From contig JBGVPV010000074.1 of NCBI GenBank assembly GCA_045127215.1, positions 16,302-80,301 on the forward strand: a DNA stretch of 64,000 bases. Reading direction: 5' to 3'. This DNA comes from Eubacteriales bacterium. Its GTDB lineage: Bacteria > Bacillota > Clostridia > Oscillospirales > CAG-272. Of this stretch, positions 22,880 through 38,053 are shown piece by piece. Numbering within the stretch: the stretch's first letter is position 1; each line of letters opens with the position of its first letter. A program made the position numbers and the translations under genes. The notes below the pieces were generated by a model. The model made no database searches. It had not been told where the DNA came from and saw nothing but the letters and a program-made list of their open reading frames with translations.

Positions 22880-24120
22880 GAGTATCCAACCTCAAATGCG
22901 GACTTATCGGCGAGCGGCTCGGCCACAGCTTTTCCCCCCTGATTCACGCCTGTCTTGCGGACTATTCCTATACGCTGACCGAGATATCCCCCGAAGGACT
23001 TAAGGGGTTCGTAGCCTCACGTCAGCTCGACGCATACAACGTAACCATTCCCTACAAGAAGGCAATAATGCCTTATCTTGACGTGATCTCCCCCGAGGCG
23101 ACAGCCATTGGAGCTGTCAATACCGTAGTACAGAGAGACGGCAAGCTTTACGGCTACAATACCGACTATTTTGGATTTTGCTATATGCTTGATTCCTCGG
23201 GTATAGACCCCCGTGGCAAAAAGGTGTTGGTGCTTGGAGCAGGTGGCGCATCTGCTACCGTATGCGCGGCAATGGGGGACAGAGGCGCGAGTGAAATAGT
23301 TACGCTTGACTCAAAGCAGAACACCCCCGAAAATATAAGACTTCATTCGGACGCCGAGATAATCGTTAACGCAACGCCCGTAGGCACGTATCCCCACAAC
23401 CTCGTCTCACCTGTGGAATTGAAGCAATTCAACCGTCTTTGCGGTGTTCTCGATCTCATATACAATCCCGCGCGGACCGCGCTTCTCTTGAAAGCGGAAA
23501 AGCTTGGAATACCGAACATAAACGGACTCCCAATGCTTGTAGCGCAAGCAGTACGCGCGTCCGAGCTTTTCACTGGAGAAAAAACGGCAGACTCGGTTTG
23601 CAAGGAGATAATTCAAAAAATAAGTGACGAGACCGAAAATATAATCATTATCGGTATGCCGGGCTCGGGAAAGACTACGGCGGCAAGAATAATTGCCGAA
23701 AAGCTTTCAAGACCCTTCCTTGACTCCGACAAGTTTTTCTGCGAAAAATTCGGAAGAACTCCCGCCGAGGTCATAACGGCAGACGGCGAGGATATATTCA
23801 GACAAATGGAGAGCGAGGTCATCGCCGAGCTTGGAAAGCAAAGAGGCAGCGTCATCGCCTGCGGCGGCGGTGTGGTAACAAGAGAGCGCAATTACGCCCC
23901 CCTGCACCAGAACGGAGTCATAGTTTTCCTTGAAAGAGCGCTAGAAAATCTCTCAAAGCGCGGCAGACCGATATCCGAGTCTACCTCTATCGAGGAGCTT
24001 TACAATTCACGCATAAACGCGTATAACGCCTTTGCGGATCTCAGAGTACAGAGCACCGAGATCCCCGAAAAAACCGCAGATCTTATCATAGAAAGTGTAA
24101 AAAACAGAGGGAAAATATGA
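22876..24120 (+). CDS. Fused shikimate dehydrogenase / shikimate kinase
   Basis: The N-terminal roughly 250 aa is AroE-like ([22 protein letters not shown]). The C-terminal roughly 165 aa is AroK-like with P-loop GMPGSGKTT. Confidence 0.88.
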
Positions 24121-24536
24121 AGATATTAGTCATTAACGGCCCGAATCTTAATATGCTTGGCATTCGTGAGCCTGAAATTTACGGCAAACAGGATTTTAAA
24201 GCACTCGAAGCGTATATCAAAAGCTCTGCCGAGGAGCTTGGTCACACGGTAACGCTCTTTCAGTCCAACCACGAGGGCGAGATAGTTGACGTCATTCAAT
24301 CCGCATACGGCGTGTTTGACGGCATCGTCATAAATCCCGCGGCATACACCCACACGAGCGTGGCGATACTTGACGCGCTGGGCGCGGTAGCAATACCCAC
24401 GGTCGAGGTACACCTCTCCGATATTAGCGTGCGCGAGGAATTCCGCCGCCATTCTTACGTTTCCATGATTGCCAAAAAAACCATCTGCGGCCTTGGATTT
24501 GAAGGCTACCGCAAGGCACTTGAATATTTTGCATAA
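24117..24536 (+). CDS. aroQ: Type II 3-dehydroquinate dehydratase
   Basis: [40 protein letters not shown]. Confidence 0.95.
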
Positions 24537-24541
24537 CAAAA

Positions 24542-24580
24542 ATCCCGACGGATATTACACTACCCGTCGGGATCTTTTAT
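24542..24580. terminator. Terminator hairpin after aroQ, directly abutting the transposase stop codon
   Basis: ATCCCGACGG-12 nt-CCGTCGGGAT followed by CTTTTATTT. Confidence 0.7.
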
Positions 24581-25093
24581 TTATTGTTCATCTACATACA
24601 ACTCATCAAATTGCCAACGCATCGGGTTTTCGTAAATATAACGCAAATGTTCTTCATAGTCTTCCCTATTCCGAATAATGTGGTCATACGAACGATATTG
24701 CCAAATATTTTCCCCACATTCTTTATTACAAAATCTTTTAAACGTAGACACGAATTTTGAAGATGTCGAATTTTGAATTGTAGGGACCGGCGTCCTCGAC
24801 GGTCCATTTTCTTTTCCCTTGATCCACAATAAAATATGGATATGATTTGGCATAATAACATAAGACTCTACGGATAAATTGTGATAAAAATCATTAAGTT
24901 GGCGTATGTATTTATCTGCAAATTTCCCATATCGCGTCAATTCGTTTTTTGGACCGTCGAGGACGCCGGTCCCTACAATATGAGAGAGAACACATCGTCT
25001 TTCCTTAGTACATATCGTTAAAAAAACCACACAATTATCATTATAATCCGCGCCACTCAGACGCATTGTTTTTCTATATTTAAAATTATCCAT
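24581..25093 (-). CDS. REP-associated tyrosine transposase-like protein (IS200-like HUH/Y1, RAYT type)
   Basis: HUH motif PNHIHILLW. C-terminal RSYDHIIRNREDY..YIYENPMRW block. Single gene without IS ends. GTAGGG-hairpin repeats lie in and around it. Confidence 0.8.
   Translation of the reverse strand: MDNFKYRKTMRLSGADYNDNCVVFLTICTKERRCVLSHIVGTGVLDGPKNELTRYGKFADKYIRQLNDFYHNLSVESYVIMPNHIHILLWIKGKENGPSRTPVPTIQNSTSSKFVSTFKRFCNKECGENIWQYRSYDHIIRNREDYEEHLRYIYENPMRWQFDELYVDEQ
24780..24805 (+). repeat. REP-like hairpin inside the transposase ORF (GTAGGGACCGGCGTCCTCGACGGTCC)
   Basis: GTAGGG foot, 6-bp stem GGACCG/CGGTCC and 10-nt loop. Encodes GPSRTPVPT on the minus strand. Confidence 0.9.
24951..24976 (-). 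repeat. REP-like hairpin inside the transposase ORF, the exact reverse complement of 24780-24805
   Basis: GGACCGTCGAGGACGCCGGTCCCTAC. Encodes VGTGVLDGP on the minus strand. Confidence 0.9.
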
Positions 25094-25260
25094 TTAATCA
25101 CCCATATTATTATAAGGCAAATCGGCAGAGAAAAGAGCCCTCTACCGATTTCTAATCTGTAATTTCCATTTCAAAAATAACAATGAAATATACGATGGTT
25201 TCATACTGCCGCTCTCCCACAAGGGAAAACTCACGTGATACGCCCTCAAATCTCATAACG

Positions 25261-25752
25261 TCAATCCATTATTTTCATAATAAACTTAGTACGCTCGGCT
25301 TTGGCGCCGCGTATTTCTATAACGTAATCAAGCTCAAGCGTGCCCGCCTCTGCAATTCGGTTTCTGACCTCAAGTGTATTGACGCAGATCTCAAACGGCA
25401 TATACGGCGTCTGATATATACAATGGTGACGCTTGCCGCGCTCGAATACCAACACCGTGGAGACGATTCCCGTGCGCCCCATCGTTACAAGCCCCGGCTC
25501 ACGCATATCGAAGGACACCGACGTTATCGAGCCCTCCATACCCGTAGCCTCACTCTCCTCGTAGGATATCTCGGCGCGGTCGCCGTCTATTTTGAACGTT
25601 CCAAAGGTTTTTATTTCTATTTTATCGGGCTCAACAGACGCCCCAATATCTTCATCAGCCATCTCCAAAACGTCTGCCTCATCAAGTCCGAATAACGAGG
25701 CTTCCACCTCGTACGTTATGGATTCAATACGTATTTTAACTTCTCTTTGCAT
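25261..25752 (-). CDS. DUF1934 (YwiB-like beta-barrel) protein
   Basis: 163 aa. Pattern V.I...I......E......G.F...G....I.Y.E is typical of DUF1934. Called by recognition only. Confidence 0.6.
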   Translation of the reverse strand: MQREVKIRIESITYEVEASLFGLDEADVLEMADEDIGASVEPDKIEIKTFGTFKIDGDRAEISYEESEATGMEGSITSVSFDMREPGLVTMGRTGIVSTVLVFERGKRHHCIYQTPYMPFEICVNTLEVRNRIAEAGTLELDYVIEIRGAKAERTKFIMKIMD

Positions 25753-25854
25753 AAGGATTTTTTCTCACTTTCCCACTTTTCCCATATATTGTATCATATC
25801 GCCCGAGGCTTGTCAAGAAAGCGTAAAAATTTTTATAAAAAATGCGTAAATCCT

Positions 25855-25883
25855 TTGACATTCGTATAATTTAGTGATATAAT
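25855..25883 (+). promoter_or_regulatory. Sigma-A type promoter of the galT-hydrolase-EEPx4 operon
   Basis: TTGACA, 17 nt, TATAAT, a perfect consensus. Confidence 0.6.
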
Positions 25884-25921
25884 TATTATGAAGTAATATG
25901 TTTAGTTTTACGGAGAATTTT

Positions 25922-27433
25922 ATGGTTTGTGAAAAAGAACTTTCAATAAAAATCAGACAGCTTATCGACTACGCGCTTAAGAACGCGCTCATCGAAAAAG
26001 AAGACGTAAATTTCTGCATCAACGGTATTCTCGGAGTACTCGGCGCATCCGAGTATATCGACCCCGTATCCGCAGAGCCATGTGAGCTTGAAGACATACT
26101 CGCATTTATGTGCGACTACGGATATGAGAACGGAAGATTAGAAAATAATTCCGTGGTATTCAGAGATCTTTTTGACACCAAGATCATGGGCATTCTGACT
26201 CCGAGACCGAGCGAGGTTGTAAAAAACTTCTTCTCGCTCTACTCCATAGATCCCTCTGCTGCAACCGATTATTTCTACGGCTTGTGTCGCGCAAACGACT
26301 ATATCCGTACCTACCGAGTTGCAAAGGATATGAAGTGGGTGTACGAGGGCAAATACGGTGCGCTTGACATCACCGTCAACCTCTCAAAGCCCGAGAAGGA
26401 TCCCAAGGCGATAGCGGCGGCAAAGCTGGTAGCACAAAGCGGGTACCCCAAGTGCCTGCTCTGCCCTGAGAACGAGGGACACACAGGAAACGCGGCTAAG
26501 CCCGCAAGGCAGACTCTGCGTCTTATTCCCCTGGAGCTCAATTCTCACAGATGGTATATGCAGTACTCCCCTTACGTTTATTACAACGAGCACTGCATAG
26601 TTCTCTCCGCGGAGCACACGCCTATGATGATAGATCACGGTACGTTCTGTCGCGCGCTTGATTTCGTTGAACAGTTCCCCCACTACTTCATCGGCTCTAA
26701 TGCAGATCTGCCCATAGTTGGCGGCTCTATCTTAACACACGATCACATGCAGGGCGGTAACTACACCTTTGCGATGGCACAGGCGTCCGTGGACACAAAG
26801 CTGACGTTTGAGGGATTTGAGGACGTAAGCGCAGGTATCGTTGCGTGGCCTATGTCGGTAATAAGACTTGCCTCTGCTGACAAGCTGCGTCTTGTTACCC
26901 TTGCCGACAAAATACTTGCCGCTTGGCGCGCGTACTCCGACGAGGAAGCGTTTATCTTTGCCGAGACTGACGGCGAGCCCCACAACACCATAACCCCGAT
27001 AGCAAGAATGAGAGACGGCATTTTTGAACTTGATCTCGTTCTCAGAAATAATATAACCACCGAGGAGCATCCTCTGGGAGTATATCACCCCCACGCCGAC
27101 GTACATCACATAAAGAAGGAAAACATCGGACTTATCGAGGTCATGGGACTTGCAGTTCTCCCCGCAAGACTTAAAAACGAAATACAGATAATGAAGCAAT
27201 ATATCCTTGAAGGACGCGATTTCTCTGAAAACGAGGATATCGTAAAGCATAAGGATTGGTTTGAGTCCATAAAGAATTCCTATGAATTCACTGTTGGAAA
27301 CACCGAGAACATTCTCTGCCGTGAGATCGGCAGAGTGTTTGAGCGCGTACTTGAGGATGCAGGCGTTTACAAGCGTACAAAGGAAGGACACGACGCGTTC
27401 ATCCGTTTTGTTGAACACGTAAATTCTATCTGA
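25922..27433 (+). CDS. galT: UDP-glucose--hexose-1-phosphate uridylyltransferase (type 2 GalT)
   Basis: YPKCLLCPENEG and THDHMQGG motifs. About 500 aa, the Firmicute type. ATG 25922 follows ACGGAG (the track start at 25898 would be almost leaderless). Confidence 0.88.
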   Translation: MVCEKELSIKIRQLIDYALKNALIEKEDVNFCINGILGVLGASEYIDPVSAEPCELEDILAFMCDYGYENGRLENNSVVFRDLFDTKIMGILTPRPSEVVKNFFSLYSIDPSAATDYFYGLCRANDYIRTYRVAKDMKWVYEGKYGALDITVNLSKPEKDPKAIAAAKLVAQSGYPKCLLCPENEGHTGNAAKPARQTLRLIPLELNSHRWYMQYSPYVYYNEHCIVLSAEHTPMMIDHGTFCRALDFVEQFPHYFIGSNADLPIVGGSILTHDHMQGGNYTFAMAQASVDTKLTFEGFEDVSAGIVAWPMSVIRLASADKLRLVTLADKILAAWRAYSDEEAFIFAETDGEPHNTITPIARMRDGIFELDLVLRNNITTEEHPLGVYHPHADVHHIKKENIGLIEVMGLAVLPARLKNEIQIMKQYILEGRDFSENEDIVKHKDWFESIKNSYEFTVGNTENILCREIGRVFERVLEDAGVYKRTKEGHDAFIRFVEHVNSI

Positions 27434-27455
27434 TATAGGATATAAAAATATTAAA

Positions 27456-28385
27456 ATGAAAAACAAAAACAAGATGCAGATCAAAAAGATCACGGACAAA
27501 CACGGCGTCACCCGCGAATATATCTTCTTTGAAGTAAAATTCAATCACTACCGCGACGTTTCAGATTCTCACGCGCACGAGGTAACGGATCGCTATGAGG
27601 AGAGAAGCTGTGAATGCGTGCTGGCACTTCCAAAAAGCTACTCCAAAAGAGGCAAGAAAACTCCCCTGATCCTGTCGTTCCACGGAGCGATGGGCAAGGT
27701 ATGCGCCGCAGAGGATAAAACAGGCGGGATCTCCCTCGCATACAACTGTATTGACGCAGGATATGCCGCACTTGACGTTTGCGGCTCCGAGCCCGACGGA
27801 TTTACCATGGGTTGCCCCGAGCATATATTTGCCGCATTCAAGGCTTACAAATTTGCTATTGAAAATTATAATCTCTCGGATCGCGTTATGGTAGCGGGCG
27901 GCTCTATGGGTGGTCACTCGGCAATGAATTTTGCCAACACCTTTCCCTCTATCGTATTGGCGGCGGGACTTTTCTACCCCCGACTCAATATGGACACCAC
28001 GGATGTCGACGGACACTCCTGCCGTGGCACGTGGGACAAGACCAAGGTAAACAGTCTTGGGTTCAGCACCCACGAAAAAATAATAAGCGTATACCGTTTT
28101 CCAAGTGACGAATGGTGCGAGGAAAACACCACGGGCTTCAACCCCCATCGCACTCGCTCGTTTACAGACGCTGACGGTAAGCGCGTTATAATTCCCCCCT
28201 GCCCTATAAAAATATGGCAAGGACTTGACGACGTGACGGTAGATCCCGTTCTCACAAAGGAATACGTGGATTCCATTCACCGCGCAGGCTGTTATGCAGA
28301 GCTTCATCTGCTTGATGGCGTCGCACACAAGACAACTCCCGTTATGCGAGAGGAGCTGGTCTTGTGGTTTAACAGATTTATTTAA
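27456..28385 (+). CDS. Alpha/beta hydrolase (serine esterase/peptidase-like), cytoplasmic
   Basis: Nucleophile elbow GGSMGGH. C-terminal acid/His region (WQGLDD ... GVAHK). No signal peptide. Confidence 0.7.
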   Translation: MKNKNKMQIKKITDKHGVTREYIFFEVKFNHYRDVSDSHAHEVTDRYEERSCECVLALPKSYSKRGKKTPLILSFHGAMGKVCAAEDKTGGISLAYNCIDAGYAALDVCGSEPDGFTMGCPEHIFAAFKAYKFAIENYNLSDRVMVAGGSMGGHSAMNFANTFPSIVLAAGLFYPRLNMDTTDVDGHSCRGTWDKTKVNSLGFSTHEKIISVYRFPSDEWCEENTTGFNPHRTRSFTDADGKRVIIPPCPIKIWQGLDDVTVDPVLTKEYVDSIHRAGCYAELHLLDGVAHKTTPVMREELVLWFNRFI

Positions 28386-28416
28386 AAATATTTAACCTAT
28401 CAAGGAGGATACGGTA

Positions 28417-29619
28417 ATGATTACAGATAAGCATAAAATAATTTACGCAACAGACCTTATCGGATATGAAAATCAGGCAAATTTATTGCATGAGATATTA
28501 GAGGTAACACTCGGCATTGACGTTCCGGTATCTAACGATACACGCGCAAAGCCGACTGAGTATGAGATTCTTATCGGTCACACCAACCGCCCGCTTTCAC
28601 AGCGCGCTTACGAGGGAGAGGGTGCAAAGAGACTTATGTCTCACGAGATCATCATAGAAGGCAACAGCATACAGCTTGCCTGCGGCGGCCCTTATTCCGC
28701 AAGGTTTGCGGTGCTGACTCTCGGAAAGGCACTCGCCGAAGGCTCTCTTGACTCCTACGTAAATAAGAGAGTTGAGCTTACCACCGAGCACGTTCCTCAC
28801 ACCGAGGGCACCGACGCGCGTATTATGAGCATTAACGTGCTTGGACAGTGCTACATCAAATCAAATCACAACGGCAAACATCCCGTATCCAGCGAACGCG
28901 CCGAGATATTGGCAAAGCTTTTAGTTGACTACACGCCCGACCTCGCGGGAGTTCAGGAAATGGACGTGAAATTCCACGCACCGCTTGACGCGTATTTTGA
29001 GGTACTCAAGCAGCACTACGGCCTTGAGTATGCCATAGCCCTCACCCAACACGGCAAAAAGACAAACGACTGTCCGATAATCTACCGTGCGGACGAATAC
29101 GAGCTTGATTACGAGAATTTTGTCCCCGCAAACTACCATATCCCCGAAAAGTATAACACTATGTACCCCTGCGGAGTTGCAAGCACCAAGTTCACCGACA
29201 AGCGCGATCCCACCGTACAGGTCGCAATGATATCTAACCACTGGCACTGGGAAAAGGAGGACGTCGCCCTCGATCCCCCGAGACAGCAGATAGACGCTGA
29301 CGATTTAGCGGCGACCACTAAATTTTTGGAAGAGACCTACCCCGGCGTAAGAGTTTTCAGCACGGGAGACTTCAACAGCCATCGATTCCAGGAAAAATAC
29401 TTCAACCGCTATCTTGAAGCCGTTGACGGAGTTGCGGCAGATCAGATCGCCATCGCAAACGGCGTTCACACACCCGCACTCGTACACATGGGATATCTTA
29501 TAGATCACATCGTCGGCAAGAAGGGCACGTTTGACGTACTGCTTCACGCCCCCACAAAGAATCGCTCCGACGTACTGACCGATCACAAGCCCATTTACGC
29601 TGATATTAAATTTATTTAA
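28417..29619 (+). CDS. EEP-family (endonuclease/exonuclease/phosphatase) protein, paralogue 1, no export signal
   Basis: One N-terminal alpha/beta module (YEILIGHTNR, IQLACGGPYS) then an EEP core: ARIMSINV, GVQEMD, SNHWHWE, GDFNSHR, IDHIV, LTDHKPIYADI. Confidence 0.75.
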   Translation: MITDKHKIIYATDLIGYENQANLLHEILEVTLGIDVPVSNDTRAKPTEYEILIGHTNRPLSQRAYEGEGAKRLMSHEIIIEGNSIQLACGGPYSARFAVLTLGKALAEGSLDSYVNKRVELTTEHVPHTEGTDARIMSINVLGQCYIKSNHNGKHPVSSERAEILAKLLVDYTPDLAGVQEMDVKFHAPLDAYFEVLKQHYGLEYAIALTQHGKKTNDCPIIYRADEYELDYENFVPANYHIPEKYNTMYPCGVASTKFTDKRDPTVQVAMISNHWHWEKEDVALDPPRQQIDADDLAATTKFLEETYPGVRVFSTGDFNSHRFQEKYFNRYLEAVDGVAADQIAIANGVHTPALVHMGYLIDHIVGKKGTFDVLLHAPTKNRSDVLTDHKPIYADIKFI

Positions 29620-29649
29620 TCATAAATATAATAGGAAGGGAAAAATTTT

Positions 29650-31443
29650 ATGAAAAAGCTTTTATCACTCGTGTTGGCACTCATATTTATTATGGGCTGT
29701 CTTGCCACCATGTCCTCTTGCGCTATTTTAGACATTTTTAATACTGACAACAAACCGGGCGAAGACGTCCCCCCTGTAATCGAGCCCCCCATCACTGAGG
29801 AGACTGACGTTGCCATAATCAAGGACGGCGCACCTCAGTTCACAATCGTTTATCCCGACGGTTCTTCCACTGAGCTCCGTGAGAAGCTCACCGCTCTCAC
29901 CGCGCAGATCAAGAAAACCACCGGCGTTACCATGAAGTCCATCAAAGCCTCTGAGGCTACCGACCCCAACGCGAGATACATACTCCTCGGCGCTACGGGT
30001 CACGAGGCGTCTTTCGCCGCAATGGAATCTCTGTCCAACAATGAGGATGCCTACAACATCGTGGCAGAAGGCAGGCACATCGCTTTCGTAGCTCACTTCG
30101 AAAGCACTCTTCTCACCGCGATAGATTATTACACCTTCAACTCTATCGAAGACAACTATGACAGCGAGACCGAGACCCTTATCTTTGAAGACCGCAACCG
30201 CAAAGGTAAGGACCCCCTTGCCACCGCATTCGATATGAACGATATCGATAAGTACACCATCATTTACAGCCCTGAAATGCCGGATTACTACAATACCGCA
30301 GTATCCATCAAGAATCATATCGCATCCGTAACCGGTGTATCCCTCAAGATCCGCAAGGACTACGAGGCTATCGAATCCCCCTATGAGATAATCGTTGGAA
30401 ACACCAACAGATACATCTCTCAGAAGAACTACAAGAACAGCGCTCGCCTTATGGAATACAGAATAGTCGTTGACAAGGGCTGCTTGCAGGTGGTTTGCGG
30501 CGGACTTTATTCCGCAAACGCAGTTCTTCCTCAGCTTTTTGACTCGCTTCTTACAAAGAGTAGCGTAGTTATCAAGAACGGTACTCCCCTCTCGGGAAAT
30601 ATGGCGCAGGAAAAGGTGCCTCACTCCGAGGGCACGGACGTTCGTGTAATGACAGCAAACATTCTCGCGCAGTCCTCCACCTCTCTTGCTGAGGGCTTCC
30701 CCCCTTCTATTGAACGTGCGGAAATATTCGCAAAGATACTCCTTGACTACTCCCCCGATTTCGTAGGTGTACAGGAAGCAGACGCAAATTATGCGCGTGC
30801 TATGTCTCATTACTTCGAGGTGATCAAGAAGATCTACGGAATTGAGTACAGCTCAACAAAGACAGATATTGACGGCACACCCATAGCAAACTACATTCTT
30901 TACCGTTCAGACAAGTATACTCTTAAGTCCCAGAAGGCAGAGCTTCCCAGCTATGCTGTAACATCCACCTCCAACTTCTATCACAGCGTACTGTCCAGCG
31001 CAATGTTCGTAAGCAAGAGCAATCCCTCCATCGAAATCGGTATGCTCTCTGCTCACTGGCACTGGGAAAAGGAAAGCGCAGTTGTTGGCACGCCTAAGCA
31101 GAAGATAGATGCTGAGCAGATGGCGGCTGAATACAACAGACTTCAGCAGGCGCACCCCAACGCAAAGATCTTCTGCACGGGTGACTTCAACAGCCACAGA
31201 TTCAAGAATAAGTACTTCAACGAATTCCTCGCAGCTATCAACGGCGCGGTGGCAAGTACTATCGCTAAGAATAACGGCGTACTCACCCCCAGCTTCCAGC
31301 ACTACACTCCCCTTCAGTACATCGACCACATCATCAGTACTGACGGTACGTTTGACGTGCTTAAGCATGCAGGTACAAACAACCACTCAAACAAGCTTAC
31401 CGACCATCAGCCCGTTTACGCTGATATCAAATTCACAAAATAA
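29650..31443 (+). CDS. EEP-family protein, paralogue 2, probable lipoprotein
   Basis: Signal peptide with lipobox-like IMGC. Two N-terminal alpha/beta modules. EEP core: VRVMTANI, GVQEAD, SAHWHWE, GDFNSHRF, IDHII, LTDHQPVYADIKFTK. Confidence 0.75.
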   Translation: MKKLLSLVLALIFIMGCLATMSSCAILDIFNTDNKPGEDVPPVIEPPITEETDVAIIKDGAPQFTIVYPDGSSTELREKLTALTAQIKKTTGVTMKSIKASEATDPNARYILLGATGHEASFAAMESLSNNEDAYNIVAEGRHIAFVAHFESTLLTAIDYYTFNSIEDNYDSETETLIFEDRNRKGKDPLATAFDMNDIDKYTIIYSPEMPDYYNTAVSIKNHIASVTGVSLKIRKDYEAIESPYEIIVGNTNRYISQKNYKNSARLMEYRIVVDKGCLQVVCGGLYSANAVLPQLFDSLLTKSSVVIKNGTPLSGNMAQEKVPHSEGTDVRVMTANILAQSSTSLAEGFPPSIERAEIFAKILLDYSPDFVGVQEADANYARAMSHYFEVIKKIYGIEYSSTKTDIDGTPIANYILYRSDKYTLKSQKAELPSYAVTSTSNFYHSVLSSAMFVSKSNPSIEIGMLSAHWHWEKESAVVGTPKQKIDAEQMAAEYNRLQQAHPNAKIFCTGDFNSHRFKNKYFNEFLAAINGAVASTIAKNNGVLTPSFQHYTPLQYIDHIISTDGTFDVLKHAGTNNHSNKLTDHQPVYADIKFTK

Positions 31444-31454
31444 AGGAAAATCGT

Positions 31455-33287
31455 ATGAATAATACCGAAAACACAAAAAACACAGAGAATCTTGAGGCAA
31501 CGGCTGACGTAAAGGTCGCTAAAAAGCCTAACAAAAAGGTTCTTATAATCGCAATTGCAGCAGTCCTCGCAGTAGCTATTATTGCAGGCGTGCTTATAGT
31601 TCTTGGCGTATTTGGCGGCAAGGACGAGCCCCCCGTTATCGAGACCGCAAACATAATTGAAAACGGCGTGGCAAATTACGCTATCGTTTACCCCGACGCT
31701 TGCTCAGGCGTTCTTGACACTCAGCTCATCTCTCTCATTTCCGCCGTTCAAGCCAAAACAGGCGTAAGACTTGATATGATAAAAGCGTCTCATGCAAACG
31801 ATCCTGATGCAAACTACATACTCATCGGCGCTACCGGCTTTGCGGAGTCCGAGGCGGCAGTAGCTTCTCTTAAGGGTAACGAAGACGCCTACACCATTGA
31901 GAAGGCAGGCAAGCACATAGTATTTGCAGGACATTTTGACAGCTCTACCGCGTCTGCCATAGAATACTTCGTACTCAATATGCTCAACAGCGGATATGAC
32001 GCAACCACCAACACCCTCACTCTCAAGGAGCATTGGTTTGACGGCACGGTTGCATTCCCCGCATCCTTCGACGCGGAAAATCTTTCCCTCTACACCATAG
32101 TTTACAGCTCCAAGACCACCAACGCCAAGGCAACCGCTGAAAAGATACAGCAGCGCATCAAAGATACCACAGGTAGAACCCTTGAGGTCAAGAGAGATAC
32201 AGGCGTATCCGAGTCCGCGTATGAGATAATCATCGGCGAGACCAACAGAGCGCTCTCCCAAAAGTGCTACGACAAGACTTACCTTATGGAATATGAGTTC
32301 GTAGTTGAAAAGGGTCAGCTTCAGATAGTCTGTGGCGGTCTGTATTCTGCAAGAATGGCAGGATACGAACTTGCTAACTTACTTACAAAAGAGGACTTCT
32401 CCTTCGCTACCGGAGCTCACGGACGTACAAACCTCGCAACTAAGAACGTAGCTCACACCGCAGGCACTGACGCGCGTATCATGACTGCAAATATCCTTTC
32501 GTACGGACAGATAACAAGCCAAGGAATGAATTTCCCCATCTCCGACGAGCGTGCAGAAATATTTGCAAAGATACTCGTTGACTACACCCCCGATTTCGTA
32601 GGTGTTCAGGAAATGGATTCCACGTTCCAGAAGCCTTTCAATAACTTCCTTAAGATCATCAAAGAGACGTACGGAATAGAATATTCCATCGTTCTTACCA
32701 AGGCTAACGGCGCGACCAACCACAGCCCCATCATTTACCGTTCTGATAAATACAAGTGCGATTATCAGAAATTCACTCCCGTTTCCTACGCTAAAAATCC
32801 CACCAAGCAAAAAGAAACAGGTGAATTGGAGTATGGCAGCGGAATTTCAAGTGCAAAGTTCACAAGCCTTACCGATCCCACCAAGGAGATAGCTATTCTC
32901 TCTTCTCACTGGCACTGGGAAAAGGAAATCGCGTCGGGTACTGACAATCAGTATTACGATGCCAAGGAGATGGAGGCAGTTATCAACGAGGTTGCTGCTA
33001 AGTACCCCAACGCTAAGATATTCAGCACGGGTGACTTCAACAGCCACAGATACTCAGGAAAGTATCTCAGAATATTCCTTGAAAACACCGACGGTGAAAT
33101 TGCAAGCACCATAGCTAAGAAGAACGGAGTTCTAAAGCCCAGCTTCCAGCATATGAATCAGTACATCGACCACATTATAGGTAAGAAGGGTACGTTTGAC
33201 GTACTTCTCCACCAGGGTACTGATAACGGCTCCAAGACACTTACCGACCACCAGCCCGTTTTTGCTGATATTAAGTTTACAAAGTAA
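31455..33287 (+). CDS. EEP-family protein, paralogue 3, N-terminal membrane anchor
   Basis: TM anchor VLIIAIAAVLAVAIIAGVLIVLGVF. Same two-module plus EEP architecture and the same catalytic motifs. Confidence 0.75.
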   Translation: MNNTENTKNTENLEATADVKVAKKPNKKVLIIAIAAVLAVAIIAGVLIVLGVFGGKDEPPVIETANIIENGVANYAIVYPDACSGVLDTQLISLISAVQAKTGVRLDMIKASHANDPDANYILIGATGFAESEAAVASLKGNEDAYTIEKAGKHIVFAGHFDSSTASAIEYFVLNMLNSGYDATTNTLTLKEHWFDGTVAFPASFDAENLSLYTIVYSSKTTNAKATAEKIQQRIKDTTGRTLEVKRDTGVSESAYEIIIGETNRALSQKCYDKTYLMEYEFVVEKGQLQIVCGGLYSARMAGYELANLLTKEDFSFATGAHGRTNLATKNVAHTAGTDARIMTANILSYGQITSQGMNFPISDERAEIFAKILVDYTPDFVGVQEMDSTFQKPFNNFLKIIKETYGIEYSIVLTKANGATNHSPIIYRSDKYKCDYQKFTPVSYAKNPTKQKETGELEYGSGISSAKFTSLTDPTKEIAILSSHWHWEKEIASGTDNQYYDAKEMEAVINEVAAKYPNAKIFSTGDFNSHRYSGKYLRIFLENTDGEIASTIAKKNGVLKPSFQHMNQYIDHIIGKKGTFDVLLHQGTDNGSKTLTDHQPVFADIKFTK

Positions 33288-33305
33288 AAAATAAGGTATT
33301 AAAAT

Positions 33306-35093
33306 ATGAGAAACATTATTGATGATCCCGCAAAAAAGAAAAACGCCGCTAACATAAAAATAATCGCATCGGTCATCGCAGTTCTCTTGATCATTAGCTG
33401 CACGTTTATTATGTACTCGTGTAATAATAAAAAATCCACGCAGATCATCAAGAATGGAACACCTCAGTACACTATCGTCACCCCCGACAACTGCTCAGAC
33501 GCACTCAGCGCAGAAATATCCGATTTGATCTCAAAGATAAAGACCGAAACGGGTGTTGAGCTGAGCTGTATCAAGGCTTCCGAAGCTACCGATAAGAACA
33601 AGGCTTACGTTCTTATCGGATCTACGGGCTTTGAAGAATCAAATTCGGCAATCGAAGCACTCGGGGCAAACGCGGACGCGTATACCATTGAACCATCAGG
33701 AAAACACGTAGTGGTAACGGGGCATTTTGACTCCGCAACAGCAGACGCCGTCAAGTACCTTGGCGAGCATCTCGTCAGCGAGGGCTACAATGCCTCATCG
33801 CAAACTCTCACGCTCACAGCCTACGCGTTTGAGGGCGCTACCGCGCTCCCCAAAGCCTTTGAGGTAAGTGAGCTCTCCCGTTACACCGTAATATATTCAG
33901 ATAGTACCCTCGGCAACCAAGAGGTTGCAGAGAAGATACAAAAGCGTATCCGCGACTATACCGGAATTACCGTAAACGTCGGCAAGGATACCGAGACACC
34001 CGAGACGGCTTATGAGATAATAGTAGGAAAAACCAACAGACGTATCTCACAGAAATACTTCGAGGGAAAAACTTACCTTATGCAGTATAAGCTGGTAGTT
34101 GAAAAGGGTCAGGTACAGATAATTGGCGGCGGCCCTTATTCCGCAAAGCTTGGAGGATACGCGCTTGCAAGTATGCTGATGGATAAAAATCTCTCACTCA
34201 CAGCAGGCACTCACTCCGAGATGGACGTAGCCACCGAGAGCATTCCGATCACCGAGGGCGCTGACGTGCGTATCATGACGGCAAACCTTCTTACCGACGA
34301 GGCGGTGACCGAAGCCACGAGAGACAACTTCCCCGTTCCAGCAGAACGCGCAGAAATACTCGCAAAGATACTCGTTGATTACACTCCCGACTTCGTAGGC
34401 GTTCAGGAAATGAGCGCAGGCTTTGTAGAGCCGCTCAATGATCTTCTTAAGATCGTCAAGGATACCTACGGGCTTGACTACTCCGTAATACTTACCGAGT
34501 GGAAAGGCAAGTCAAACCACTGCCCTATCATCTATCGTGCGGACAAGTACAGACTTGACTATCAGAATCTTACCCCCGCGTATTATCTGCCCAACGGAAC
34601 TCCCCCTTCAAAGAATTGGGGAAATTGGTACGACAACGCAACCGCCGCGGCGAAGTTTACAAGCCTTACTGATCCCACCGTTGAGATCGCCCTGCTGACG
34701 TCTCACTGGTATTGGGAAACAGAGCAGGAGGCCGCAAACAACGGTCTTATTCGTCAGGAGATAGACGCCCGGACTATGACTGACGTATTCAATTACGTCA
34801 AAGAAACCTTCCCGAATGCAAAAATATTCTGCACGGGTGACTTTAACAGCCATCGCTTCAGCGGTAAGTATTTCAATCAATTCCTTTCGAACATAAGCGG
34901 CGCGGTAGCAAGTAATATTGCACGCTCCAATGGAGTTCTCAAGGAGAGCTACAAGCACCAGGGCGTGTATATCGACCATATCATAGGCAAGAACGCTACC
35001 TTTGACGTGCTTCTCCACAGTGGAACCAAGAACGCTTCAAGCACGCTGACAGACCATCAGCCTGTTTTCGCGGATATTAAATTCACAAAATGA
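33306..35093 (+). CDS. EEP-family protein, paralogue 4, probable lipoprotein or anchored
   Basis: Hydrophobic N-terminus with LIISC. Same architecture. EEP core: VRIMTANL, GVQEM, TSHWYWE, GDFNSHRF, LTDHQPVFADIKFTK. Confidence 0.75.
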   Translation: MRNIIDDPAKKKNAANIKIIASVIAVLLIISCTFIMYSCNNKKSTQIIKNGTPQYTIVTPDNCSDALSAEISDLISKIKTETGVELSCIKASEATDKNKAYVLIGSTGFEESNSAIEALGANADAYTIEPSGKHVVVTGHFDSATADAVKYLGEHLVSEGYNASSQTLTLTAYAFEGATALPKAFEVSELSRYTVIYSDSTLGNQEVAEKIQKRIRDYTGITVNVGKDTETPETAYEIIVGKTNRRISQKYFEGKTYLMQYKLVVEKGQVQIIGGGPYSAKLGGYALASMLMDKNLSLTAGTHSEMDVATESIPITEGADVRIMTANLLTDEAVTEATRDNFPVPAERAEILAKILVDYTPDFVGVQEMSAGFVEPLNDLLKIVKDTYGLDYSVILTEWKGKSNHCPIIYRADKYRLDYQNLTPAYYLPNGTPPSKNWGNWYDNATAAAKFTSLTDPTVEIALLTSHWYWETEQEAANNGLIRQEIDARTMTDVFNYVKETFPNAKIFCTGDFNSHRFSGKYFNQFLSNISGAVASNIARSNGVLKESYKHQGVYIDHIIGKNATFDVLLHSGTKNASSTLTDHQPVFADIKFTK

Positions 35094-35094
35094 C

Positions 35095-35136
35095 AAAAAA
35101 ATACCGTCGCAGTTTAGACTGCGACGGTATTTTTTG
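35095..35136 (+). terminator. Rho-independent terminator of the galT-EEP operon
   Basis: AAAAAAATACCGTCGCAG-tttaga-CTGCGACGGTATTTTTTG. Confidence 0.85.
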
Positions 35137-35202
35137 TTATACTCTGCCTCCCCACGCCGTCATCCTCGAACGAGCATCCCCTACGAAAAAACAACATACT
35201 TT

Positions 35203-35228
35203 GTAGGGACCGGCGTCCCCGACGGTCC
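35203..35228 (+). repeat. REP-like hairpin (GTAGGGACCGGCGTCCCCGACGGTCC)
   Basis: One mismatch (in the loop) to the intragenic copy at 24780-24805. Confidence 0.85.
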
Positions 35229-35261
35229 AAGCCTGTAATAAAGTAACTTTTACATAGAAAT

Positions 35262-35287
35262 GGACTGTCGAGGACGCCAGTCCCTAC
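35262..35287 (-). repeat. REP-like hairpin, inverted partner of a doublet (GGACTGTCGAGGACGCCAGTCCCTAC)
   Basis: The stem is changed to GGACTG/CAGTCC, a compensatory pair change relative to GGACCG/CGGTCC. 33-nt spacer containing GTAACTTT. Confidence 0.85.
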
Positions 35288-35396
35288 AAATCAAGTCGTC
35301 GAGGAGACTCCCCCGTTTTTTACCTTTTGTATATTATTTCCATTTTTTACCACAAAAATTTGTATCTTTTGCGATATGGAAATTTTTGTAAATATA

Positions 35397-35425
35397 TTGA
35401 ATTTTTCCCTAAAATATGGTAAAAT
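35397..35425 (+). promoter_or_regulatory. Sigma-A type promoter upstream of spo0A
   Basis: TTGAAT, 17 nt, TAAAAT with an extended -10 TGg. 40 nt before the ATG. Confidence 0.45.
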
Positions 35426-35465
35426 ATGGATGTAATGAAAAATACACGGAGGATAAAATTAAAAA

Positions 35466-36239
35466 ATGGAAAAGACAACTAAAATATTGATCGCCGACGA
35501 GAATGCGGCAAGCAGACAGTCACTTATGTCAGAATTACGCAGAGCGGGCTACGCAAGCGTCGAGCTTGCGGCAAACGGAGAGGAAGCACTGCATAAGATA
35601 GATCGATTTCACCCCGACGTTGCCATAATCGACGTATGGCTCTCGGGTATTGACGGCATCGGAGTGCTTCGCAACAGCCGCAAGCTCAATTTCGGATCAG
35701 ACAAGGTGCCCGCATTCATCGTGGTATCCATGGTGTCAAATCAAAGCGTTTTTATTGAAGCGGCAAATGCAGGGGCAGACCTTTGCCTGTTAAAGCCCTA
35801 CAACACGGACAGCCTGTGCAATCATATCGCCTCGCTTGCTCAAAGCAGAGCCACCGAGGGCACGGCAGACGCAATGACAGGCGCACCCGACATAGAAACT
35901 CAGGTAACCAAAATAATACATCAGATCGGCGTTCCCGCGCATATAAAGGGATATCAGTATCTGAGGACGGCTATTTTGCTGACCGTCAAAGACTCGGATA
36001 TAATCAATTCCGTCACAAAAATACTCTACCCTTCCGTAGCAAAGAAATATCAGACCACCACAAGCCGCGTTGAGCGCGCTATTCGCCACGCGATAGAGGT
36101 GGCGTGGGATCGCGGTGACGTTGACACACTCAACTCCTATTTTGGCTACACAATCCAAAACAACCGTGGCAAACCCACTAATAGCGAATTCATCGCCATG
36201 ATCGCAGATAACCTCAGACTTCAATATAAGCTGTACTAA
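35466..36239 (+). CDS. spo0A: Sporulation master regulator Spo0A
   Basis: Receiver domain ([21 protein letters not shown]) plus the Spo0A C-terminal DNA-binding domain ([48 protein letters not shown]). Confidence 0.95.
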
Positions 36240-36243
36240 AGTA

Positions 36244-36284
36244 AAAACGGCGTGATACCCCTCGGGGAGTATCACGCCGAAATA
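36244..36284. terminator. Hairpin between convergent spo0A and the zinc-ribbon gene
   Basis: GGCGTGATACCCC-tc-GGGGAGTATCACGCC. An A-run on the plus side gives a U-tract for the minus-strand gene. Confidence 0.65.
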
Positions 36285-36303
36285 TTATGAGTTTATTTTC
36301 GGC

Positions 36304-36984
36304 TTATATTAACAAGAGACACCACTTGCCCTTATACTTGATAAGAGTCATTTCCTGTGTTTGACCATCCATCTTTACCTTTGCGATCTTAACGCCCTTG
36401 ATGTCTTCAACATCGAAATCATCAATGATTTCCTCAAGATATTCAAAGCGCTTCTTAATCTCTCTCTTTTCAGAAGAGGTAGCGTCCTCGATCTTTACGA
36501 TTCTATATTCAGCACCCTCCATGTAGGAATCTTCCATAGACTCCTCGAGCATTTCAATGTAATCGCTCTTGTCCATATTCTCATCCATCTCAAAGTAGAA
36601 GGAAGGAAGAACGCTTACGAATTGCTTTGCATCACAGTCAACTATCGCATCAAGACCTTTCTTAAGAACTGCCTTGGGGCTGGGGAAAATAACGGAAATA
36701 AGTATGCTGATAACGATGATAGCCGCAACCGCAGCACCACCGATAATACCAAACTTCTTGATCTTTTCCATACCTACCTTTTCCGCAATAGCCTTAACGT
36801 TCGGAACCTTCAGAGATACAGTGCTCGTAAGGCTGGGCTCTGCGGTAGCGGTAGCGCCCTGAGCTTCCTCGTTTACACTTACCTGCTCTGCAAATTCCGC
36901 AGGCTTGACTTCAGTGCCGCAAGCAGGACAGAACTTAGCATCGTCCAACATCTCCGCGCCACAATTTACACAAATTTTTGACAT
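36304..36984 (-). CDS. Zinc-ribbon membrane protein (hypothetical)
   Basis: CVNCGAEM..CPACGTEV zinc ribbon, one TM helix (FGIIGGAAVAAIIVISILISVIF), and an extracytoplasmic domain of about 130 aa. ATG 36984 has AAAGGA upstream (track start is 37008). Confidence 0.6.
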   Translation of the reverse strand: MSKICVNCGAEMLDDAKFCPACGTEVKPAEFAEQVSVNEEAQGATATAEPSLTSTVSLKVPNVKAIAEKVGMEKIKKFGIIGGAAVAAIIVISILISVIFPSPKAVLKKGLDAIVDCDAKQFVSVLPSFYFEMDENMDKSDYIEMLEESMEDSYMEGAEYRIVKIEDATSSEKREIKKRFEYLEEIIDDFDVEDIKGVKIAKVKMDGQTQEMTLIKYKGKWCLLLI

Positions 36985-37182
36985 AGCCGTAATTCCTTTC
37001 TCGGTCATTTTTTGTAATAATACCGTCGTTTATCCGACGGCTTAAAAGACTCTGGTTCAATTATAGCACACATTTTTACAATAATCAAGAGAATATGACA
37101 TTTTTTTCGCAAAGATTGTTTACAAATCCCCCTTTTTGTGATAAACTATGATAGAAATAACGATAAAGCGAGGGAGACACCT

Positions 37183-37878: not shown

Positions 37879-37879
37879 T

Positions 37880-37895
37880 AAAAAACGGCATATCG
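37880..37895 (+). repeat. Left arm of a 16-17-nt perfect inverted repeat (AAAAAACGGCATATCG)
   Basis: Starts 2 nt after the PHP stop codon. The partner lies at 39197-39213, 1.3 kb away. Confidence 0.85.
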
Positions 37896-37934
37896 TCACC
37901 TCTGCAACTTTAGCGGAGAAAACAATTTCATAAC

Positions 37935-37973
37935 GTAGGGCGGGGGCGTATTTGCTTACAAATGGGCTCCCGC
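37935..37973 (+). repeat. REP-like element (GTAGGGCGGGGGC..17 nt..GGCTCCCGCC)
   Basis: GTAGGG foot plus an imperfect GC-rich stem. Its first 13 nt are the exact reverse complement of 38065-38077. Confidence 0.7.
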
Positions 37974-38003
37974 CGCTTCGTTTTTTTAAGCAACATCTAC
38001 ATC

Positions 38004-38026
38004 GTAGGGGCGACCATTGGTCGCCC
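38004..38026 (+). repeat. REP-like hairpin (GTAGGGGCGACCATTGGTCGCCC)
   Basis: GTAGGG foot overlapping the stem GGGCGACC/GGTCGCCC. Confidence 0.8.
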
Positions 38027-38053
38027 GTTTTTGTTTTCATAAAGGTATTTTTC

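Follow-up and report, generated by a model that had tools for sequence, protein, structure and literature searches.

Here, we identify the four tandem paralogues of a six-gene operon in a 64,000-nucleotide stretch of DNA (the window) from an uncultured Clostridia bacterium of the gut as, judged by sequence comparison, old members of a large, widespread and uncharacterised protein family. In these proteins, one or two N-terminal modules of glycosidase type precede a C-terminal EEP domain, which structure prediction and residue conservation indicate to be a Mg2+-type EEP phosphoesterase retaining the full catalytic set (N, E, H, D/N, D, D-H). We tentatively suggest, with somewhat less than even confidence, that the exported members are surface phosphoesterases acting on phosphorylated carbohydrate.

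Table 1. Features of the operon, in positions of the window.
Feature	Position	Strand	Basis
Sigma-70-type promoter, TTGACA-17-TATAAT with TG extension	25855-25883	+	12/12 consensus match
Class II GalT	25898-27433	+	NCBIfam NF003629, TIGR01239; Pfam GalP_UDP_transf N-/C-terminal domains
Cytoplasmic alpha/beta-fold serine hydrolase, esterase-like, GGSMG nucleophile elbow	27456-28385	+	Pfam Esterase
Paralogue 1 (P1), 400 aa: one module and EEP domain, no signal peptide	28417-29619	+	Alignment, domain parsing (M-EEP, class "none")
Paralogue 2 (P2), 597 aa: lipobox N-terminus, two modules, EEP domain	29650-31443	+	Alignment, domain parsing
Paralogue 3 (P3), 610 aa: membrane anchor (aa 27-51), two modules, EEP domain	31455-33287	+	AlphaFold2 model, Foldseek
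P3 module A (~aa 62-200)	31638-32054	+	
P3 module B (~aa 204-335)	32064-32459	+	
P3 EEP domain (~aa 336-610)	32460-33284	+	
Paralogue 4 (P4), 595 aa: lipobox N-terminus, two modules, EEP domain	33306-35093	+	Alignment, domain parsing
Intrinsic terminator hairpin, 18-bp stem, A-run 5', T-run 3'	35096-35135	+	

The six plus-strand genes, which extend from 25898 to 35093, encode a class II GalT, a cytoplasmic alpha/beta hydrolase and P1 to P4, in that order (Table 1). They are spaced 11 to 31 nt apart (22, 31, 30, 11 and 18 nt in gene order), and every one of the five gaps contains a purine-rich ribosome-binding site. The first-pass annotation had described a single unit with one consensus promoter and one terminator, and the coordinates, gaps, promoter and hairpin all match this description. 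The promoter is the sole 12/12 match across the 11 kb scanned (25000 to 36000), the hairpin folds as RNA with a ΔG of −30.6 kcal/mol (z = −9.4 versus shuffles), and the terminator scan found no convincing plus-strand terminator between the genes. Co-transcription of all six genes as one transcription unit is plausible on these features. The scan listed the hairpin on the minus strand; it is a palindrome with a T-rich stretch downstream on the plus strand and, because an A-run precedes and a T-run follows the stem, it could terminate transcription in both directions. The operon is located in the core chromosome, between shikimate genes with a DUF1934 gene and spo0A.

Full-length alignment confirmed four paralogues of the annotated lengths, alignable across their entire shared length. 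P1 shares 41-46% identity with the other three; among these, identities are 48% for P2-P3, 53% for P3-P4 and 42% for P2-P4. P1 begins straight in its module without a hydrophobic stretch and is presumed to be cytoplasmic. P2 and P4 start with a hydrophobic stretch and a lipobox-like Cys, and in P3 residues 27-51 are predicted to form a transmembrane helix; with these predicted lipoprotein or membrane-anchor N-termini, P2 to P4 would be anchored on the outer face of the membrane. Domain parsing, which assigned P1 to class "none", agreed with the annotated division into one non-exported and three exported copies. By contrast, the description of the exported copies as near-duplicates did not hold: they are old paralogues, only 42-53% identical, and each is matched by separate orthologues (66-98%). 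Identity to orthologues is 71-73% for P1, 88% and 69% for P2, 94% and 66% for P3, and 98% and 70% for P4.

Structure prediction and Foldseek assign the C-terminal ~275 residues to the EEP fold. Structure comparison could have put this domain outside the EEP fold; instead, the AlphaFold2 model of P3 (pLDDT 88.8) matched CNOT6L, BVU_0621, BT3783, Nocturnin, PDE12, TDP2 and DNase I in Foldseek at E values of about 1e-13. Moreover, among 26 sequences with identity down to 23%, N346, E386, D527, N529 and D572 never vary, and H485, H573, D598 and H599 hardly do. A profile of the family searched against PDB sequences matched BVU_0621 best (E 1.7e-19), along with PDE12 (1e-10), the mannosyl-6-phosphatase BT3783 (3-5e-10) and Nocturnin (1e-8), and DNase I at no better than 3e-3. 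The annotated EEP core with intact catalytic signatures is borne out by these results; the motifs quoted for it are present in the paralogues, except that P4 has GVQEMS instead of GVQE(M/A)D. Pfam Exo_endo_phos scored 22.6 bits for P2 and 19 bits for P4, both under the cut-off of 24.5.

The N-terminal modules had been described as duplicated and as resembling N-terminal domains of glycoside hydrolases, and both points found support. Modules A and B are homologous by hhalign (probability 97.7%, E 1.8e-12). In Foldseek, the model of the P3 N-terminal half (pLDDT 92.9) matched the N-terminal domains of GH115, GH84 and GH20 (E 8e-6 to 1e-3, probability about 1.0), and the predicted fold of both modules agrees with these alpha/beta domains. 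However, there the domain is present in a single copy before a glycoside hydrolase catalytic domain, whereas here it is duplicated before an EEP domain. The Pfam models of the GH20, GH84 and GH115 N-terminal domains gave no match to the paralogue sequences, and an invariant motif, E-I-x-x-G-x-T-N-R, is particular to the modules. With a single module as query, one Foldseek match was an archaeal S-layer cell-wall anchoring domain (9fsa).

As the first-pass annotation had proposed, the module-EEP fusion is undescribed: we found no Pfam or NCBIfam model, no PDB entry and, in the literature searched, no paper for it. It is not a rarity, however: at E ≤ 1e-30, no fewer than 1076 clusters built at 50% identity match, nearly all of them from uncultured Clostridia of the gut or rumen. 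A lipobox or transmembrane start is present in 143 of 147 two-module proteins, and 20 of 38 one-module proteins have neither; pairs of an exported long and a cytoplasmic short protein occur at loci L014 and L017. Many members stand alone in uninformative contexts. In raw counts, which reflect a minority of loci and genes for sugar metabolism that are generally abundant in Clostridia, distant loci contain a ~490-aa lipoprotein (10 loci; 3 of 8 members match SBP_bac_1) and AraC regulators (6 loci). Distant loci also encode CE2/AxeC2-like and CE15 esterases and a GH2/GH106-like protein, and NagB with NahK (L008) or GalE with a sugar-1-phosphate nucleotidyltransferase (L014) lie near family members. 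The suggested co-occurrence of the architecture with galT is limited to one syntenic clade: galT and the hydrolase gene occur with family members in close syntenic relatives alone (L038/L051, L046 and L048), and about 40 other loci examined, which hold family members or EEP relatives, have neither gene.

GalT exceeds the cut-offs of NF003629 (740 versus 628 bits) and TIGR01239 (654.5 versus 650.15 bits), is matched by both Pfam GalP_UDP_transf domains and has THDHMQ as its HxHxQ motif. Its real start is probably the ATG at 25922, behind GGAG, giving a product of 503 aa, the same length as the L046 orthologue (orthologues, 503-504 aa). That galT occurs without galK or galE was upheld: neither was recognised among the window's ORFs, as judged by eye from N-terminal sequences and for some ORFs by Pfam or NCBIfam scans, or in the syntenic loci across flanks of 8-10 kb. 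GalT proteins of Bacillota are ordinarily of class II (preprint 10.64898/2026.09.13.751320), and the presence of one here therefore says little about substrate. BlGalT2 prefers GalNAc-1-P (preprint 10.64898/2026.09.13.751320). Similarly to the Leloir-like GNB/LNB pathway (NahK, the class II GalT LnpC/BlGalT2, and GalE), the operon opens with a class II GalT, and distant loci of the EEP family carry NahK (E 2e-105 to PDB 4WH1) or GalE; the window, however, has no recognised phosphorylase, NahK or GalE, and the link of this pathway to the EEP proteins is circumstantial. The hydrolase barely passes Pfam Esterase (22.4 bits, cut-off 22), has otherwise only weak matches and has no signal peptide visible in its sequence. 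Of its 369 homologues, the 120 listed are 60-97% identical, and all source names giving an organism are Clostridia.

The first-pass model, in which phosphoglycan would yield hexose-1-phosphate for GalT, is speculative and draws indirect support from a BT3783-type sugar phosphatase that is close to the family in sequence and from carbohydrate or HexNAc genes at distant loci. Among the nearest characterised sequence relatives is the EEP-domain mannose-6-phosphatase BT3783 (PDB 4C1R/3MPR), which holds Mg2+ in its active centre, is encoded by a yeast-mannan utilisation locus of Bacteroides thetaiotaomicron and, in that gut bacterium, acts on a phosphorylated glycan (PMC4978465). However, BT3783 is a single-domain protein of ~290 aa from Bacteroidota without glycoside-hydrolase-type modules, and its identity to the window proteins is low. 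BVU_0621 (PDB 3G6S), a structural-genomics protein of Bacteroides vulgatus, has the catalytic motifs of the family, matches the EEP domain over its full length and is among the top Foldseek matches (TM 0.75 on target); it is likewise single-domain, has no assigned function and is the subject of no paper in the literature searched. The CCR4/Nocturnin/PDE12 branch has the EEP fold in common and cleaves ribose phosphate esters (the Nocturnin crystal structure contains its substrate NADPH, 6nf0; PDE12 is a 2',5'-phosphodiesterase), but these enzymes are eukaryotic and intracellular, act on nucleotides and lack a lipoprotein anchor and glycoside-hydrolase-type modules. Counting against the carbohydrate reading, the module-EEP family has no characterised or ligand-bound member, the best structural matches are RNA- or DNA-processing enzymes, the window proteins fall just under the Pfam EEP cut-off, the galT/hydrolase linkage is found in one syntenic clade, and the operon has no transporter gene.

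Other readings account for parts of these data. The operon may be a patchwork in which galT and the hydrolase gene are unrelated housekeeping genes under the promoter of a locally expanded set of EEP genes, without a common pathway. We regard this as quite possible, if doubtful: the galT/hydrolase linkage is confined to syntenic close relatives, galT is missing from the 10 kb around most family members, and hydrolase orthologues with 63-65% identity sit alone elsewhere amid housekeeping genes, beside MscL and transaldolase or beside acetate kinase. However, the order galT-hydrolase-P1-long copies persists in relatives with EEP proteins as divergent as 62-66% identity, and the Leloir-like genes for NahK, GalE and the nucleotidyltransferase occur independently near members elsewhere. 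Remodelling or recycling of the cell's own envelope, with phosphodiester-joined teichoic-acid-like or secondary cell-wall glycopolymers as substrates and P1 and GalT recycling sugar-1-phosphates, would fit the predicted anchoring at the membrane surface, the confinement of the family to monoderm Clostridia, the core chromosomal region with synteny kept in relatives, the S-layer match of a single module and the presence of more than one member on separate contigs in several genomes (HGM12713, HGM12691 and one Eubacteriales MAG). Nevertheless, AraC regulators, the solute-binding-like lipoprotein and catabolic enzymes as neighbours speak for nutrient use rather than wall synthesis, Pfam and NCBIfam scans found no wall-biosynthesis genes in the operon, and we consider this role improbable.

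EEP membrane nucleases of Mycoplasma and other Firmicutes scavenge nucleosides and phosphate, and P2 to P4 could similarly be surface-tethered nucleases or nucleotide phosphodiesterases acting on extracellular DNA, RNA or nucleotides. The top Foldseek matches (CNOT6L, PDE12, Nocturnin, TDP2 and DNase I) and the predicted lipoprotein anchoring suit such scavenging, P4 weakly matches the NCBIfam MnuA membrane nuclease family, and a relative in L043 adjoins a Na/Pi cotransporter-PhoU gene and a two-component system. This is unlikely, however, given that the MnuA score of 27 bits is far under the cut-off of 185, that the DNase I profile match is poor next to the 1e-10 to 1e-19 of the PDE12/BT3783/BVU_0621 group, that a non-specific nuclease with a cytoplasmic paralogue would be hazardous, that the modules are of glycosidase type and that recurring neighbours concern sugars, not nucleosides. 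The EEP superfamily also includes sphingomyelinases and inositol 5-phosphatases, and some relatives lie near PAP2 or phospholipid genes, or near GFO/IDH/MocA oxidoreductases, a sugar-phosphate isomerase-like TIM barrel, DeoR regulators and FGGY kinases. Nevertheless, it is very improbable that the paralogues are phosphodiesterases or phosphatases of lipids or polyols (sphingomyelinase/phospholipase-C or inositol-phosphate phosphatase type) with host lipids, bacterial lipids or inositol phosphates as substrates, because these neighbours are generic and neither sphingomyelinases nor inositol phosphatases appear among PDB sequence matches at E ≤ 1 or the top 50 Foldseek matches.

We tentatively retain phosphorylated carbohydrate as the substrate. 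We suggest that the exported enzymes would cleave phosphate mono- or diesters on phosphorylated glycans, oligosaccharides or sugar phosphates originating from diet, host, yeast or other microbes. They would use the usual EEP mechanism, in which an Asn/Glu pair holds the metal and the C-terminal Asp-His pair activates water. GalT may bring hexose-1-P or HexNAc-1-P into UDP-sugar metabolism and the esterase may contribute de-esterification; this step is the weakest, and both genes may just as well be co-transcribed neighbours that descent alone has kept there. For the bacterium, cleavage at the surface would free sugar, and possibly phosphate, for uptake, and the cytoplasmic P1 would complete the breakdown of imported phosphorylated fragments.

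Here, we identify a family of proteins in which one or two N-terminal alpha/beta modules (A and B) precede a C-terminal EEP phosphoesterase domain, an architecture that is undescribed yet widespread. The EEP superfamily and the glycosidase-type N-terminal domain are each well known separately. We found no description of their fusion in the literature searched, and the full architecture has neither a Pfam or NCBIfam model of its own nor a solved structure among PDB sequences. Judged by the models and papers found, what is new is the fusion of module and EEP domain, the duplication of the module, and the large family of Clostridia lipoproteins that results.

The paralogs P1 to P4 of the operon have a predicted EEP fold with intact metal-binding and general-base residues, and they comprise predicted exported and cytoplasmic forms. 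For P3, AlphaFold2 was run on an alignment of 26 sequences; in the resulting model (mean pLDDT 88.8, pTM 0.82), residues ∼336 to 610 adopt the EEP fold by Foldseek comparison with the PDB. CNOT6L, BVU_0621, BT3783, Nocturnin, PDE12, TDP2, and DNase I are matched at E ∼1e-13 and probability 1.00, and all 50 listed of the 140 matches at E ≤ 1e-3 are EEP-fold enzymes (target TM up to 0.79). Across the 26 sequences, with identities down to 23%, N346, E386, D527, N529, and D572 are invariant, and H485, H573, D598, and H599 show conservation of 90% or higher. The catalytic residues of the family align to equal motifs in BVU_0621 (PDB 3G6S) and cover the N-terminal Asn, the metal-binding Glu, the central His, the Asp and Asn of GDxN, the late Asp, and the C-terminal Asp-His. 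The window paralogs score under the PF03372 cut-off of 24.5 bits (22.6, 19.0, and 13.0 bits, with no Pfam match to this model for P3), while more distant family members exceed it at 28 to 121 bits; the sub-threshold scores reflect divergence rather than another fold. Flavodoxin and adenovirus matches of the window proteins in Pfam and NCBIfam were rejected as spurious.

Residues 60 to 335 of P3, modeled separately (pLDDT 92.9), have their best Foldseek matches, at probability ∼1.00, in the N-terminal domains of glycosidases from three families, i.e., GH115 alpha-glucuronidases (4c90, E 8e-6), GH84 (6pv4, E 2e-5; 2cbi), and GH20 (8pxt, E 4e-5; 7dva; 4h04). In GH20b, GH84, and GH115 proteins, a glycoside hydrolase catalytic domain follows, whereas in the window proteins the EEP domain follows. 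The modules have no Pfam match at E ≤ 0.1, including to the GH20b/GH84/GH115-type N-terminal domain models, and no NCBIfam match. Because comparison of the two module profiles gave a probability of 97.7% and an E of 1.8e-12, modules A and B are homologous. Module B carries the invariant motif E-I-x-x-G-x-T-N-R (T263/N264/R265). Altogether, the predicted structures and Foldseek matches support the first-pass annotation in assigning the C-terminal domain to the EEP fold and in likening the modules to glycoside hydrolase N-terminal domains, and the profile comparison bears out its proposal that the modules are duplicated.

A word-indexed protein search returned 46 relatives, all unnamed or labeled "hypothetical" or "EEP family protein". 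When 1.84 billion cluster representatives, with clusters counted at 50% identity, were searched exhaustively with a profile, 13193 proteins matched at E ≤ 1e-3, of which 1076 also pass E ≤ 1e-30; the best 150 are mostly full-length, at ∼560 to 640 aa. A scan of species-representative genomes gave 35 loci, 32 of them in MAGs of uncultured Clostridia from human gut, rumen, or faeces; the remainder are one record labeled "bacterium" and Lentisphaerae and Verrucomicrobia loci that match the EEP domain only. A scan of metagenome contigs, chiefly short ones, added little context. By domain parsing of 195 family proteins, with a crude signal rule for export class, 147 have two modules, and 143 of these start with a lipobox or transmembrane segment; 38 have one module, and 20 of these lack an export signal. 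In loci L014 and L017, a signal-less short form directly follows an exported long form, which mirrors P1 with P2 to P4. The pairing of a predicted exported two-module form with a predicted cytoplasmic one-module form is a family-wide pattern. In a single protein of 3270 aa (P0047), two modules and an EEP domain are followed by six more module-EEP units (seven EEP units in total), making it a fused equivalent of the window's tandem genes.

The operon layout given in the first-pass annotation holds: six ORFs on the + strand with gaps of 22, 31, 30, 11, and 18 nt, each gap with a purine-rich ribosome-binding site, one consensus promoter, and one strong terminator (Table). A terminator scan found no + strand terminator of substance between the operon genes, and two weak promoter-like sites lie inside the operon. 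This anatomy suggests one transcript for all six genes. Because Rfam at gathering thresholds gave no RNA family across 24000-39500, this interval has no known riboswitch or leader. Horizontal transfer of the locus was rejected, as its GC content of 0.47 to 0.50 equals that of the flanks and synteny is kept in relatives. P1 to P4 align across their entire shared length, with identities of 41 to 46% between P1 and the others, 48% for P2-P3, 53% for P3-P4, and 42% for P2-P4. Because each has its own orthologs in other metagenomes (identities of 73% and 71% for P1, 88% and 69% for P2, 94% and 66% for P3, and 98% and 70% for P4), they are old paralogs, and a recent tandem duplication was rejected on the same grounds. 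These separate orthologs and the mutual identities of 42 to 53% contradict the earlier description of the exported copies as near-duplicates.

Coordinates of features in the window and in comparison loci
Feature	Locus	Position	Strand	Remarks
Six operon ORFs	window	25898-35093	+	
Operon promoter	window	25855-25883	+	TTGACA-17-TATAAT with TG extension; sole 12/12 match in 11 kb scanned
galT start	window	25922	+	probable ATG; GGAG precedes; gives 503 aa, as L046 ortholog
Gene 2, alpha/beta hydrolase	window	27456-28385	+	
Weak promoter-like sites	window	31936-31965, 33276-33305		
Operon terminator hairpin	window	35096-35135	+	18-bp stem, then T-run; dG -30.6 kcal/mol, z = -9.4 vs shuffles
MFS transporter gene	window	21350-22579	+	
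IS200-like Y1 transposase ORF	window	24581-25093	-	
DUF1934 gene	window	25261-25752	-	
DUF1934 promoter-like site	window	25816-25788	-	11/12 with TG extension
REP-like element copies	window	24780-24800, 24956-24976, 35203-35223, 35267-35287, 45125-45145, 45188-45208, 45362-45382, 45466-45486		
PHP-domain protein	window	37138-37878	+	
PHP-domain protein	L043	14660-15514		
PHP-domain protein	L044	9617-10585		
PHP-domain protein	L011	7167-8327		
Amino-sugar gene group	L008	4365-17602		rumen Clostridia
∼490-aa lipoprotein	L008	12642-14108		
∼490-aa lipoprotein	L011	62-1477		
∼490-aa lipoprotein	L012	11542-13038		
∼490-aa lipoprotein	L013	8390-9862		
∼490-aa lipoprotein	L014	8369-9829		
∼490-aa lipoprotein	L017	8209-9825		
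∼490-aa lipoprotein	L020	13308-14810		
∼490-aa lipoprotein	L044	4937-6403		

Several further elements surround the operon. A DUF1934 gene diverges from it, with a promoter-like site back to back with the galT promoter, and the same arrangement occurs in loci L038, L046, and L051. An MFS transporter gene lies within a row of shikimate-pathway genes, between those for chorismate synthase and chorismate mutase, and has an equal position in L038 and L051. A REP-like 21-nt element, GTAGGGACNGGCGTCCNCGAC, has 8 copies in the window vs 0 expected. Six of them form three inverted pairs with a spacing of ∼60 to 180 nt, one pair between the operon terminator and spo0A and another within an IS200-like Y1 transposase ORF.

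Loci of three kinds share with the window the order of galT, the hydrolase gene, P1, and a long copy or copies between DUF1934 and spo0A. A single long copy is present in L038, L037, and L051 (identity of 62 to 68% to the window EEP proteins, 84% for GalT, and 89% for Spo0A), at least two are present in L046 and L047 (66% identity), and the third kind is L048, which belongs to the window's own species. Because all share the synteny of the window, these loci descend from one arrangement. In ∼40 other loci that encode family members or EEP relatives, the fetched flanks contain neither galT nor the hydrolase gene. Functional coupling of the two genes to the EEP set, as proposed at first, is therefore possible, but independent co-occurrence lends it no support, and the operon context is a lineage-specific arrangement.

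The first gene encodes a class II GalT (NF003629, 740 bits, cut-off 628; TIGR01239, 654.5 bits, cut-off 650.15; IPR000766), and its translation contains THDHMQ, a HIT-type HxHxQ motif as defined for this class (preprint 10.64898/2026.09.13.751320). Class II GalTs are restricted to Bacillota and Actinomycetota; the Bifidobacterium enzyme has a 50-fold preference for GalNAc-1-P, and the Lactobacillus enzyme is among the few others biochemically characterized (2026 preprint 10.64898/2026.09.13.751320). Therefore, the class tells little about the sugar-1-phosphate used by the window GalT, which has no solved relative among PDB sequences. Gene 2 encodes a putative alpha/beta hydrolase that has a GGSMG elbow and lacks an export signal. 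It scores 22.4 bits against the Pfam Esterase model (cut-off 22), and every other HMM match is below its own cut-off. We found 369 homologs, with identities of 60 to 97% among the 120 listed (P0192 to P0311); orthologs at 63 to 65% identity adjoin genes for MscL and transaldolase, or acetate kinase. Conservation of the gene 2 family in Clostridia is unusually strong, at 60 to 67% identity over many MAGs, and elsewhere it is a stand-alone gene.

To what extent do gene neighborhoods point to a substrate? Crude ORF calls from 45 loci were clustered, and an unannotated lipoprotein of ∼490 aa adjoins family members in 10 loci. It matches SBP_bac_1 weakly in three of eight members (best E 2e-7), has no match in PDB or NCBIfam, and stands without neighboring ABC permease genes; a role as an orphan partner of the exported enzymes, in solute binding or substrate capture, is possible. 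AraC-type regulators are near family members in six loci. Among the loci examined, the gene content of L008 points most clearly to amino-sugar metabolism, with NagB, an AraC regulator, an N-acetylhexosamine 1-kinase (E 2e-105 to PDB 4WH1), a second AraC regulator, three EEP-family genes, a solute-binding-like lipoprotein, and an AxeC2-like esterase lipoprotein. L014 encodes GalE, a sugar-1-phosphate nucleotidyltransferase, a GFO/IDH/MocA oxidoreductase, and a sugar-phosphate-isomerase-like protein, L039 a CE15 esterase and a GH2/GH106-like protein, and L044 an FGGY kinase and a CE2/GDSL esterase. Many family members are isolated genes with uninformative surroundings, and one relative adjoins a Na/Pi cotransporter-PhoU gene. 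Overall, the neighbors lean toward carbohydrate acquisition, as seen in a minority of loci. PHP-domain proteins, which are metal-dependent phosphoesterase-like, are encoded within a few kb of members of the EEP family not only in the window but also in three or more unrelated loci; their Pfam scores are mostly under cut-off, and the nearness may be coincidence.

The characterized relatives bear on the same question. A single-sequence search with P3 against PDB sequences gave nothing useful, and a family profile was needed. This profile matched BVU_0621 (function unknown, E 1.7e-19), PDE12 (E 1e-10), BT3783 ("mannosyl-6-phosphatase", 3MPR/4C1R, E 3-5e-10), Nocturnin (E 1e-8), TDP2 (E ∼3e-4), and DNase I (E 3e-3). 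These E-values place the family in an EEP branch with characterized cutters of sugar and ribose phosphate esters, outside the DNase I and sphingomyelinase branches. BT3783 is an EEP phosphatase from a Bacteroides yeast-mannan utilization locus; its assay substrates were phosphorylated sugars and a high-mannose N-glycan bearing phosphate, and its active center contains Mg2+ (PMC4978465). The family is linked to this sugar phosphatase by sequence relatedness, at the E-value given.

We tentatively favor carbohydrate phosphate as the substrate, a reading that we hold at slightly less than an even chance. The exported lipoproteins would act at the cell surface and cut carbohydrate phosphate esters, whether mono- or diesters. 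Import of the products would follow, for which the adjacent solute-binding-like lipoprotein of other loci may serve, and the cytoplasmic one-module form would work on the phosphorylated fragments once imported. That GalT takes a sugar-1-phosphate product is speculative. A more specific version, which we consider a long shot, is that the surface-anchored class excises phosphodiester-linked hexose or HexNAc from host, yeast, or bacterial phosphoglycans, so that sugar-1-phosphates would enter UDP-sugar metabolism via class II GalT without a kinase step. In that version, an EEP catalytic domain would have replaced the glycosidase catalytic domain behind a glycosidase-type N-terminal domain, and the window proteins would found a large unrecognized class of carbohydrate-phosphate esterases in gut Clostridia.

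Other accounts have to be set beside the carbohydrate-phosphate reading. The six genes may share a promoter without sharing a pathway, which would be compatible with any substrate; we regard this as a serious possibility, if not a probable one. Surface nucleases are unlikely; on the MnuA membrane nuclease model NF045851, P4 scores 27.3 bits against a cut-off of 185, and P1 to P3 have no NCBIfam match to it. Rather improbable, too, is a role in turning over the bacterium's own wall polymers, and we give very little credence to lipid or inositol phosphoesterases, the family profile having matched no sphingomyelinase among PDB sequences at E ≤ 1. Present evidence leaves several candidate substrates.

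What is known of how gut bacteria degrade glycans comes chiefly from glycoside hydrolases, lyases, and esterases. To our knowledge, enzymes handling the phosphate groups of glycans are barely catalogued, and BT3783 is the sole EEP example acting on glycan phosphate that surfaced in this analysis. The family described here comprises more than 1000 clusters at 50% identity. Its members come almost entirely from uncultured Clostridia of the gut and rumen, usually carry a lipoprotein anchor, and lack a domain model for half of their length. Because the family is large and gut-specific, it merits biochemical follow-up. Should its members be nucleases or wall-turnover enzymes, the outcome would be a useful yet ordinary annotation of a common "hypothetical protein". 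Should they act on phosphorylated carbohydrate, they would help explain how monoderm gut bacteria gain access to phosphomannans, teichoic-acid-like polymers, or phosphorylated host glycans, and would justify a new entry in catalogues of carbohydrate-active enzymes.
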